This document shows, piece after piece, positions 59,405-59,596 of a stretch of DNA of 64,000 nucleotides (within the stretch, counting starts at the first letter, position 1; each line of letters starts with the position of its first letter). A model generated the notes under the pieces. The model was not told the DNA's origin, did no database searches, and saw only the letters and a list, made by a program, of their open reading frames with translations. A program made the translations under genes and the position numbers. This DNA is from Leucoraja erinacea (taxonomy: Eukaryota): positions 11,656,001-11,720,000 of the forward strand of contig NC_073391.1 of NCBI RefSeq assembly GCF_028641065.1, given 5' to 3'.

Positions 59405-59596
59405 TGTAGGAAATAACTGCAGATACTGGTTTAAATCGAAGATAGTCACAAAATGCTGGAGTAACTCAGCGGGACAGGCAGCATAGTTTTGTGTCGAGAC
59501 TGAAGAAGGGTCTCGGCCCGAAACGTCACACATTCCTTCTCTCCAGAGATGCTGCCTGTCCCACTGAGTTACTCCAGCATTTTGTGTCTATCTTTG
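59405..59596. mobile_element. Penelope-derived fold-back insertion with TSD
   Basis: Inverted arms; flanks AGTAGAACCATCCTG (59390-59404) and AGTAGAACTATCCTG (59597-59611). Confidence 0.82.

Follow-up and report, generated by a model that had tools for sequence, protein, structure and literature searches.

A minimal hammerhead in the end repeat of an abundant skate Penelope-like element: likely weak or assisted cutting in the parent and likely inert scattered copies

A motif repeated across a 64-kb stretch of skate DNA (the window, by which we mean the whole stretch analysed) is best read, with a probability of about 0.65, as a minimal hammerhead of type I located in the end repeat (pLTR) of a high-copy Penelope-like element (PLE) with a reverse transcriptase (RT) and a GIY-YIG endonuclease (EN), a hammerhead that likely cuts weakly or with assistance and whose scattered copies are likely inert. 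A preliminary description of this DNA had listed eight hammerhead-like copies, at 2148-2176(-), 9197-9224(-), 10997-11024, 15340-15367, 17411-17438, 58292-58319, 59500-59527 and 62252-62279(-), and on direct re-reading all eight sites carried the letters claimed. These are copies of one repeat rather than independent motifs, and the window contains two or more additional worn copies (57359-57432, 58995-59082). A core pattern allowing one mismatch at most matched the window seven times, compared to 1.23 ± 1.14 times in shuffled sequence (0 of 100 shuffles reached seven); six of these matches were family copies and one, at 28897, was a chance match.

The copies outside the focal insertion, with element positions counted from C3 throughout, are as follows.

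2081..2180, minus strand: solo end unit, belonging to the youngest subfamily (loop UUCG, triplet GUU), starting at -4, with a 1-bp helix I
9133..9341, unstranded: hairpin insertion carrying the 9197-9224(-) motif, with damage to both helix II and the palindrome
10907..11085, unstranded: intronic hairpin insertion; its 10997-11024 motif has a 1-bp helix I and AUGU
15229..15430, unstranded: intronic hairpin insertion; its 15340-15367 motif has C3G
17180..17531, plus strand: longer copy with a C-terminal GIY-YIG endonuclease remnant (17180-17314), 3' UTR, broken hammerhead (17411-17438) and tail; intronic, sense
57359..57432, plus strand: worn solo copy, additional to those first listed
58284..58418, plus strand: solo end unit carrying the 58292-58319 motif, which has an intact core, a 2-bp helix I and a broken palindrome
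58905..59082, unstranded: hairpin insertion with a worn motif, additional to those first listed
62190..62392, unstranded: hairpin insertion with the 62252-62279(-) motif, G12A

Core positions were broken in three of the eight listed copies (15340, C3G; 17411, C3G, G10.1U and G12A; 62279, G12A). The self-complementary ACGU described earlier held in the subfamily majorities and in the focal copy, but pairable ACGU was missing from three of the eight window copies (58292, 9224 and 62279) and reduced to a wobble in one. None of the eight combined the core, the palindrome and a 2-bp helix I. Comparison with Rfam hammerhead models had also been proposed; in our scan of the window none of the 19 weak matches (E ≤ 10) was a hammerhead, the Rfam models expecting longer helices. 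The window holds other repeats as well. A SINE-like repeat of ~300 bp with a (TTTAG)n end occurs at 2181-2482, 7602-7846, 40944-41220, 42635-42949 and 56529-56838, its copy at 2181 adjoining the Penelope end at 2180; LINE-like fragments lie at 2751-3039, 18541-18625 and 46777-47740, with RT-like frames on the minus strand at 46798-47721; and a 160-bp GC-rich palindrome at 63644-63809, unrelated to the Penelope family and with a sub-threshold MIR851 match, is possibly a MITE.

We assign the repeat to the pLTR of an EN+ PLE because it is linked to an endonuclease, because the linked frame contains both RT and GIY-YIG domains, and because the copies show a partial-tandem layout. The end of a GIY-YIG frame lay upstream of longer copies. 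A genome search with this frame gave 102,278 first-look candidates, of which 150 were scored and 30 loci examined; at 23 of these 30 loci, which were chosen by endonuclease similarity alone and a few of which were duplicates of each other, the motif lay 88-141 nt downstream on the same strand. At locus L061 a 601-aa frame comprised an RT, a CX4CxxC linker and GIY-YIG, the motifs being read directly; its Pfam matches to RVT_1 (E=1.4e-4) and GIY-YIG (E=0.013) were both below the curated cut-off, and the RT-EN frame had no match among NCBIfam and PDB sequences. An RT-EN linker of the form CX2-5CxxC is reported as common to Neptune and Nematis (PMC8557442), and the CX4CxxC sequence would point to one of these two clades. 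In the window, the copy at 17411 followed a 45-aa endonuclease remnant that matched the L061 601-aa frame at 87% (tblastn, E=1e-18), so that the Penelope derivation proposed earlier is borne out both here and by the place of the motif in the end repeat of an RT + GIY-YIG element. In loci L312/L316-L345 the tail continued into the ORF start and RT, giving the order ORF end, 3' UTR, hammerhead, tail and next ORF start, with about 3.0 kb from hammerhead to hammerhead; such a partial-tandem pLTR layout is known for EN+ PLEs (PMC8557442, PMC3846280). The hallmarks of EN+ PLEs were present: a pLTR from a partial tandem, inverted 5' copies, a one-sided tail and a target-site duplication (TSD). Descent of the motif from a PLE-borne minimal hammerhead is, in our judgement, almost certain. 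A long element copy at L061:3900-6500 has a 16-bp TSD and, at the 5' end, a short tail in inverted orientation, and in L183, L171 and L190 a GC-rich, minisatellite-like expansion lies within the N-terminal coding region of the element.

The family is abundant. The exact 31-letter motif occurred 10,833 times genome-wide (reversed control, 0), and a tail-only profile, run over 80 10-kb stretches spaced evenly along the genome, gave 340 matches, of which 294 scored well. The density of the repeat was about 370 pieces/Mb, or ~0.8 million pieces genome-wide when extrapolated from this 80 x 10-kb sample.

The architecture of the motif, which the preliminary description had called a minimal type I hammerhead, is that of the published PLE consensus (PMC4209133). 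The core letters CUGANGA-H, G10.1-C11.1, GAAA and UH were present in all subfamily majorities, and the palindromic 15.1-16.1 element, which makes a double hammerhead possible, was ACGU in the subfamily majorities and in the focal copy. The extra A before helix II had been regarded as atypical; it is the published norm, a base between positions 9 and 10.1 being a conserved feature of the consensus CUGANGAH (PMC4209133). The earlier account left out helix I, the feature that makes a hammerhead type I and on which activity depends. In the parent element it measured only 2 bp (U-A or U-G, plus G-C), and both pairs were kept across subfamilies although the sequence upstream differed wholly.

Relatives in metagenomes were collected with a pattern that put no constraint on helix I and fixed the GGG/CCC of helix II, and helix II therefore carries no covariation test. 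At least 121 stretches were returned, 19 of which also matched the RT-EN protein. The 120 usable matches fell into 24 clusters, which are related rather than independent, and in these helix I was paired at positions 1, 2 and 3 in 24/24, 23/24 and 17/24 clusters (permutation means 13.3, 10.4 and 12.0), with no pairing signal at positions 4-6. In a 24-row alignment made up of 18 cluster representatives (the other six of the 24, near-duplicates, were omitted) and six own-genome copies, the covariation score was 0.409, relative to 0.123 ± 0.029 in shuffles, none of 500 of which reached it, and to slid controls of at most 0.108. As a class, then, the motif is a genuine structured hammerhead linked to PLEs. 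The covariation and core conservation proposed as tests in the preliminary description came out divided: helix I covariation was strong, in distant relatives only, support from core conservation between subfamilies was weak, and inserted cores were no better conserved than their surroundings. In helix II, whose pairing had been described as kept, the within-family change from U-A to U-G was one-sided and not compensatory. Many PLE-linked minimal hammerheads with a covarying helix I of 3-6 bp were seen in metagenome contigs L191-L311 (host DNA), and these relatives are better candidates for cleavage assays than the skate family.

The focal insertion consists of the following parts.

59405..59596, unstranded: focal insertion, a 192-bp head-to-head hairpin from two 5'-truncated element ends
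59390..59404, plus strand: left TSD of 15 bp, with one mismatch against the right copy
59597..59611, plus strand: right TSD
59406..59484, minus strand: inverted arm, element +49 to +128 (long 3' end with a tail of ~30 nt), without the hammerhead
59500..59527, plus strand: minimal hammerhead core with CUGAAGA, extra A, 4-bp helix II, GAAA, palindromic ACGU and GUC cut triplet
59528..59596, plus strand: pLTR from the predicted cut site to the short 3' end (about +96)

All 13 of its 13 core letters were intact. Its helix I was 0 bp, the 5' strand having been replaced by the inverted arm, and the predicted fold of 59400-59604 was one long hairpin (-114.7 kcal/mol) with a helix II probability of 0. 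The focal copy and the other scattered genomic copies are likely inert by-products of reverse transcription.

Inserted copies decay neutrally: non-majority letters made up 108/1636 (6.6%) of their cores and 441/6270 (7.0%) of their tails (p=0.58), and the complete motif was present in 26 of 151 copies ascertained by their tails. That inserted copies as a class are inert is very probable. For the parent motif, our analyses make it rather probable that some catalytic context persists; the hammerhead would likely cut weakly in the RNA of the parent element, as a dimer or with the help of an element protein. Weak or assisted cutting is our best guess because published minimal hammerheads cut poorly, even as dimers (PMC4209133), and because the anole hammerhead did not cut alone and cut with protein (PMC11167929).

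The strongest alternative, which we nevertheless consider unlikely, is a vestigial hammerhead of the same origin that no longer cuts, its letters persisting as transcription-start or RT signals or through the youth of the subfamilies. Helix I of 2 bp is at the bottom of the published range. In the predicted folds, the GGGU of helix II pairs with the four bases after the cut site, a competing structure that beats helix II in old and young subfamilies alike; the predicted probability of helix II exceeded 0.5 in 17 of 52 own-genome motifs, compared to 77 of 85 metagenome relatives, and the double-hammerhead fold was predicted at -6 to -7 kcal/mol against -13 to -16 for two monomer folds, 6-10 kcal/mol worse. 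Loss of cutting would also agree with the lack of a pile-up of insertion ends or reads at the cut site, and with letters at -5..+1 that fit the initiator consensus (YYANWYY). Hammerhead mutants were without effect on insertion of the anole element in vitro (PMC11167929), and conservation of the core between subfamilies, counted as non-CpG differences at diagnostic sites, was 0/11 in the core versus 15/58 in the tail, a non-significant difference (p=0.10). Against a vestigial state, every subfamily majority retained all 13 letters of the core together with the palindrome and the two covarying pairs of helix I, while the upstream sequence was replaced and 15 of 58 tail sites differed. The changes that did become fixed between subfamilies (U-A to U-G, GUC to GUU) were all of tolerated kinds, and the anole hammerhead is likewise idle alone yet cuts with protein (PMC11167929).

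The ends of the insertions bear on how the copies arose. There were two fixed 3' ends, at about +95 and +128: of 286 3' ends, 104 lay at +88-97 and 98 at +122-128, the reference sequence itself ending at +128. Loose RNA read ends at +92-94 and +128 echoed these two classes. Among 177 non-inverted copies, 73 had 5' ends at -10..+4, or 53 once 20 doubtful copies, whose upstream sequence resembled an unmodelled subfamily or an inverted remnant, were dropped, whereas only four had 5' ends at the cut site (+25..+31). The density of 5' ends was 3.5 per nt at this front edge of the hammerhead versus 0.5 upstream and 1.2 downstream, and the front-edge ends were spread over about 12 nt rather than placed on one base. 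Copies that read through into the ORF started at -6..+7 in eight of 30 cases and never at +19..+46. A shared flank of at least 8 bp was found for 13 of the 73 front-edge copies, compared to 4.1% in shuffles, and included several flush TSDs of 9-14 bp. Of 44 hairpins, 29 had one long and one short arm and one had two long arms, where about 19 and 7 were expected from arm frequencies; 17 of the 44 had a shared flank of 8 bp or more.

The raw reads of four RNA runs showed no pile-up of molecule starts or ends, the cut site included; these libraries are fragmented poly(A) or single-cell, are unable to map RNA 5' ends, and draw reads from many copies. The repeat was present in RNA mainly inside other transcripts, 73-94% of reads continuing into unlike sequence. 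A Drosophila virilis-type 3' splice site (upstream pyrimidine tract + CAG), placed at the 5' strand of helix I, is not supported: it was absent from the 15 joints listed, and we found no upstream exon common to truncated copies. Several ideas about the hairpins were tried and rejected. A short-tailed arm that always carries the full hammerhead was the rule in six of six window hairpins and failed in the random sample (12 vs 15, p=0.70). Inverted arms that end at the cut site and so rebuild a long helix I occurred once in the window (58905-59082, with a worn core), and only two of 109 paired arms started at +25..+29. The hairpins do not correspond to a DNA transposon (MITE), their arms being unequal and continuous with the RT-EN element.

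We propose that RT would start internally at either of the two 3' ends, as it does for the anole Poseidon element in vitro, and would copy towards the RNA 5' end, mostly running off at the front edge of the hammerhead (-8 to +4), a run-off probably explained by a transcript start at this point. A hairpin would probably form when each of the two cut DNA strands serves as a primer, at a different start site. Because insertion ends at the cut site are rare, the RNA template would be uncut. Run-off at the transcript 5' end is the explanation of the front-edge ends that we slightly favour, with arrest of the RT by structure or by the upstream pyrimidine tract as the alternative. The letters near -3 fit the initiator consensus YYANWYY. 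D. virilis Penelope has an internal promoter (PMC2377424). A fuller version, which we put forward tentatively and at slightly less than even odds, is that transcripts start at the hammerhead front edge and that the hundreds of thousands of TSD-flanked units and hairpins of 95-130 bp represent 'strong-stop' cDNAs that became integrated, and so record, as fossils, the 5' end of the RNA and both RT start sites. In L320, L321, L326, L329, L330, L340 and L345, the end repeat and ORF start were followed directly by another solo end unit, and such composite insertions suggest template jumps after a first short cDNA.

That short TSD-flanked units far outnumber long ones, and that animal retrozymes derive from PLE pLTRs (bioRxiv 10.64898/2026.07.22.740005), would fit a separate non-autonomous family, retrozyme or SINE-like, propagated through hammerhead cleavage and circular RNA. 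We regard this as very improbable: the units begin 5' of the hammerhead core rather than at the cut site, the helix I strand upstream of the core forms no fixed part of them, subfamily marks are common to short units and ORF-bearing copies, copies that continue into the ORF start at the same place, and the window contains no head-to-tail arrays.

Three copies lie within a host gene of the COE (EBF) family, for which the window holds the following feature.

13002..50402, plus strand: COE/EBF exons at 13002-13103, 16868-16975, 35872-35958 and 44016-44063, with the stop codon at about 50400

The gene is presumably EBF3 rather than a paralogue, judging by its C-terminal exon. The copies at 10997, 15340 and 17411 are indeed in sense within the EBF pre-mRNA, as had been stated, all on the plus strand and between plus-strand exons. 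The effect on that pre-mRNA which this placement implied does not follow, however, all three being defective: 15340 carries C3G, 17411 carries C3G, G10.1U and G12A, and 10997 has a 1-bp helix I inside a hairpin. Ribozyme action on the EBF pre-mRNA, for which the three sense copies in its introns might speak, or domestication of the focal copy, is accordingly of negligible probability, since at about 370 pieces/Mb copies are expected in any long gene, the same introns hold opposite-strand arms too, and the focal copy sits about 9 kb past the stop codon in a hairpin fold that abolishes helix II.

Published work already describes this hammerhead class and its extra base, as well as the inverted ends and the tail. 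The skate motif is the same as the minimal hammerheads described for metazoan PLE pLTRs, with CUGANGA and one unpaired base, G10.1-C11.1, GAAA, a loopless palindromic 15.2-16.2 and UH, and it shares with them its pLTR location and the occurrence of truncated elements mostly as scattered copies, single or on opposite strands (PMC4209133). The Acropora Neptune row in Fig. S3 of that paper has the same spacing and the same 4-bp, GGG-led helix II. The skate differs in its 2-bp helix I, where the range given is 2-6 bp and mostly 3-5, in its predicted competing fold, and in a copy number about 100-fold above the 4,000-9,000 given for coelacanth and Xenopus (PMC4209133); no cartilaginous fish is among 56 rows of that Fig. 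S3. As reported for Neptune and Nematis EN+ PLEs, the skate element has an RT, a CX2-5CxxC linker and GIY-YIG at the C terminus, together with 5' truncation, partial tandems, an inverted 5' copy, a one-sided tail of 30-40 bp and TSDs of 8-15 bp (PMC8557442, PMC3846280). Unlike in the descriptions of those clades, the commonest skate products are tiny solo ends and hairpins, and whereas solo pLTRs without TSDs were attributed to recombination in PMC3846280, many skate solo ends have TSDs.

The anole Poseidon element PAc has, in vitro, two internal sites of RT initiation separated by roughly one tail length, as in the skate, and can be likened to it in that both DNA strands are cut and extended, uncut RNA is the main template, read ends at the cut site are absent and the hammerhead is protein-assisted (PMC11167929). 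PAc belongs to a different clade, and its ORF starts at helix II (PMC11167929) versus, by our estimate, about 160 nt after C3 in the skate. The skate pieces also resemble animal non-LTR retrozymes in being non-coding, hammerhead-bearing and pLTR-derived, but those are tandem arrays with a complete hammerhead per unit (bioRxiv 10.64898/2026.07.22.740005), whereas the skate pieces in the window and the 800-kb sample are dispersed, solo or inverted. The same preprint covers one chondrichthyan, and we found no description of this PLE hammerhead family in cartilaginous fish in the literature consulted, including PMC6155905.

These results add one lineage to a ribozyme class described in 2014 and correct the view of its extra A as atypical. 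They also provide a natural data set on the open question of the role of PLE hammerheads and the origin of pLTRs, tails and inverted ends. The many insertion ends at the hammerhead front edge, and almost none at the cut site, agree in vivo with the in vitro data on uncut templates, and the front-edge ends give a directly testable prediction of where transcription starts. If true, transcription from the front edge would limit helix I to 2-3 bp, and this geometry together with the competing fold would keep the ribozyme off during reverse transcription.
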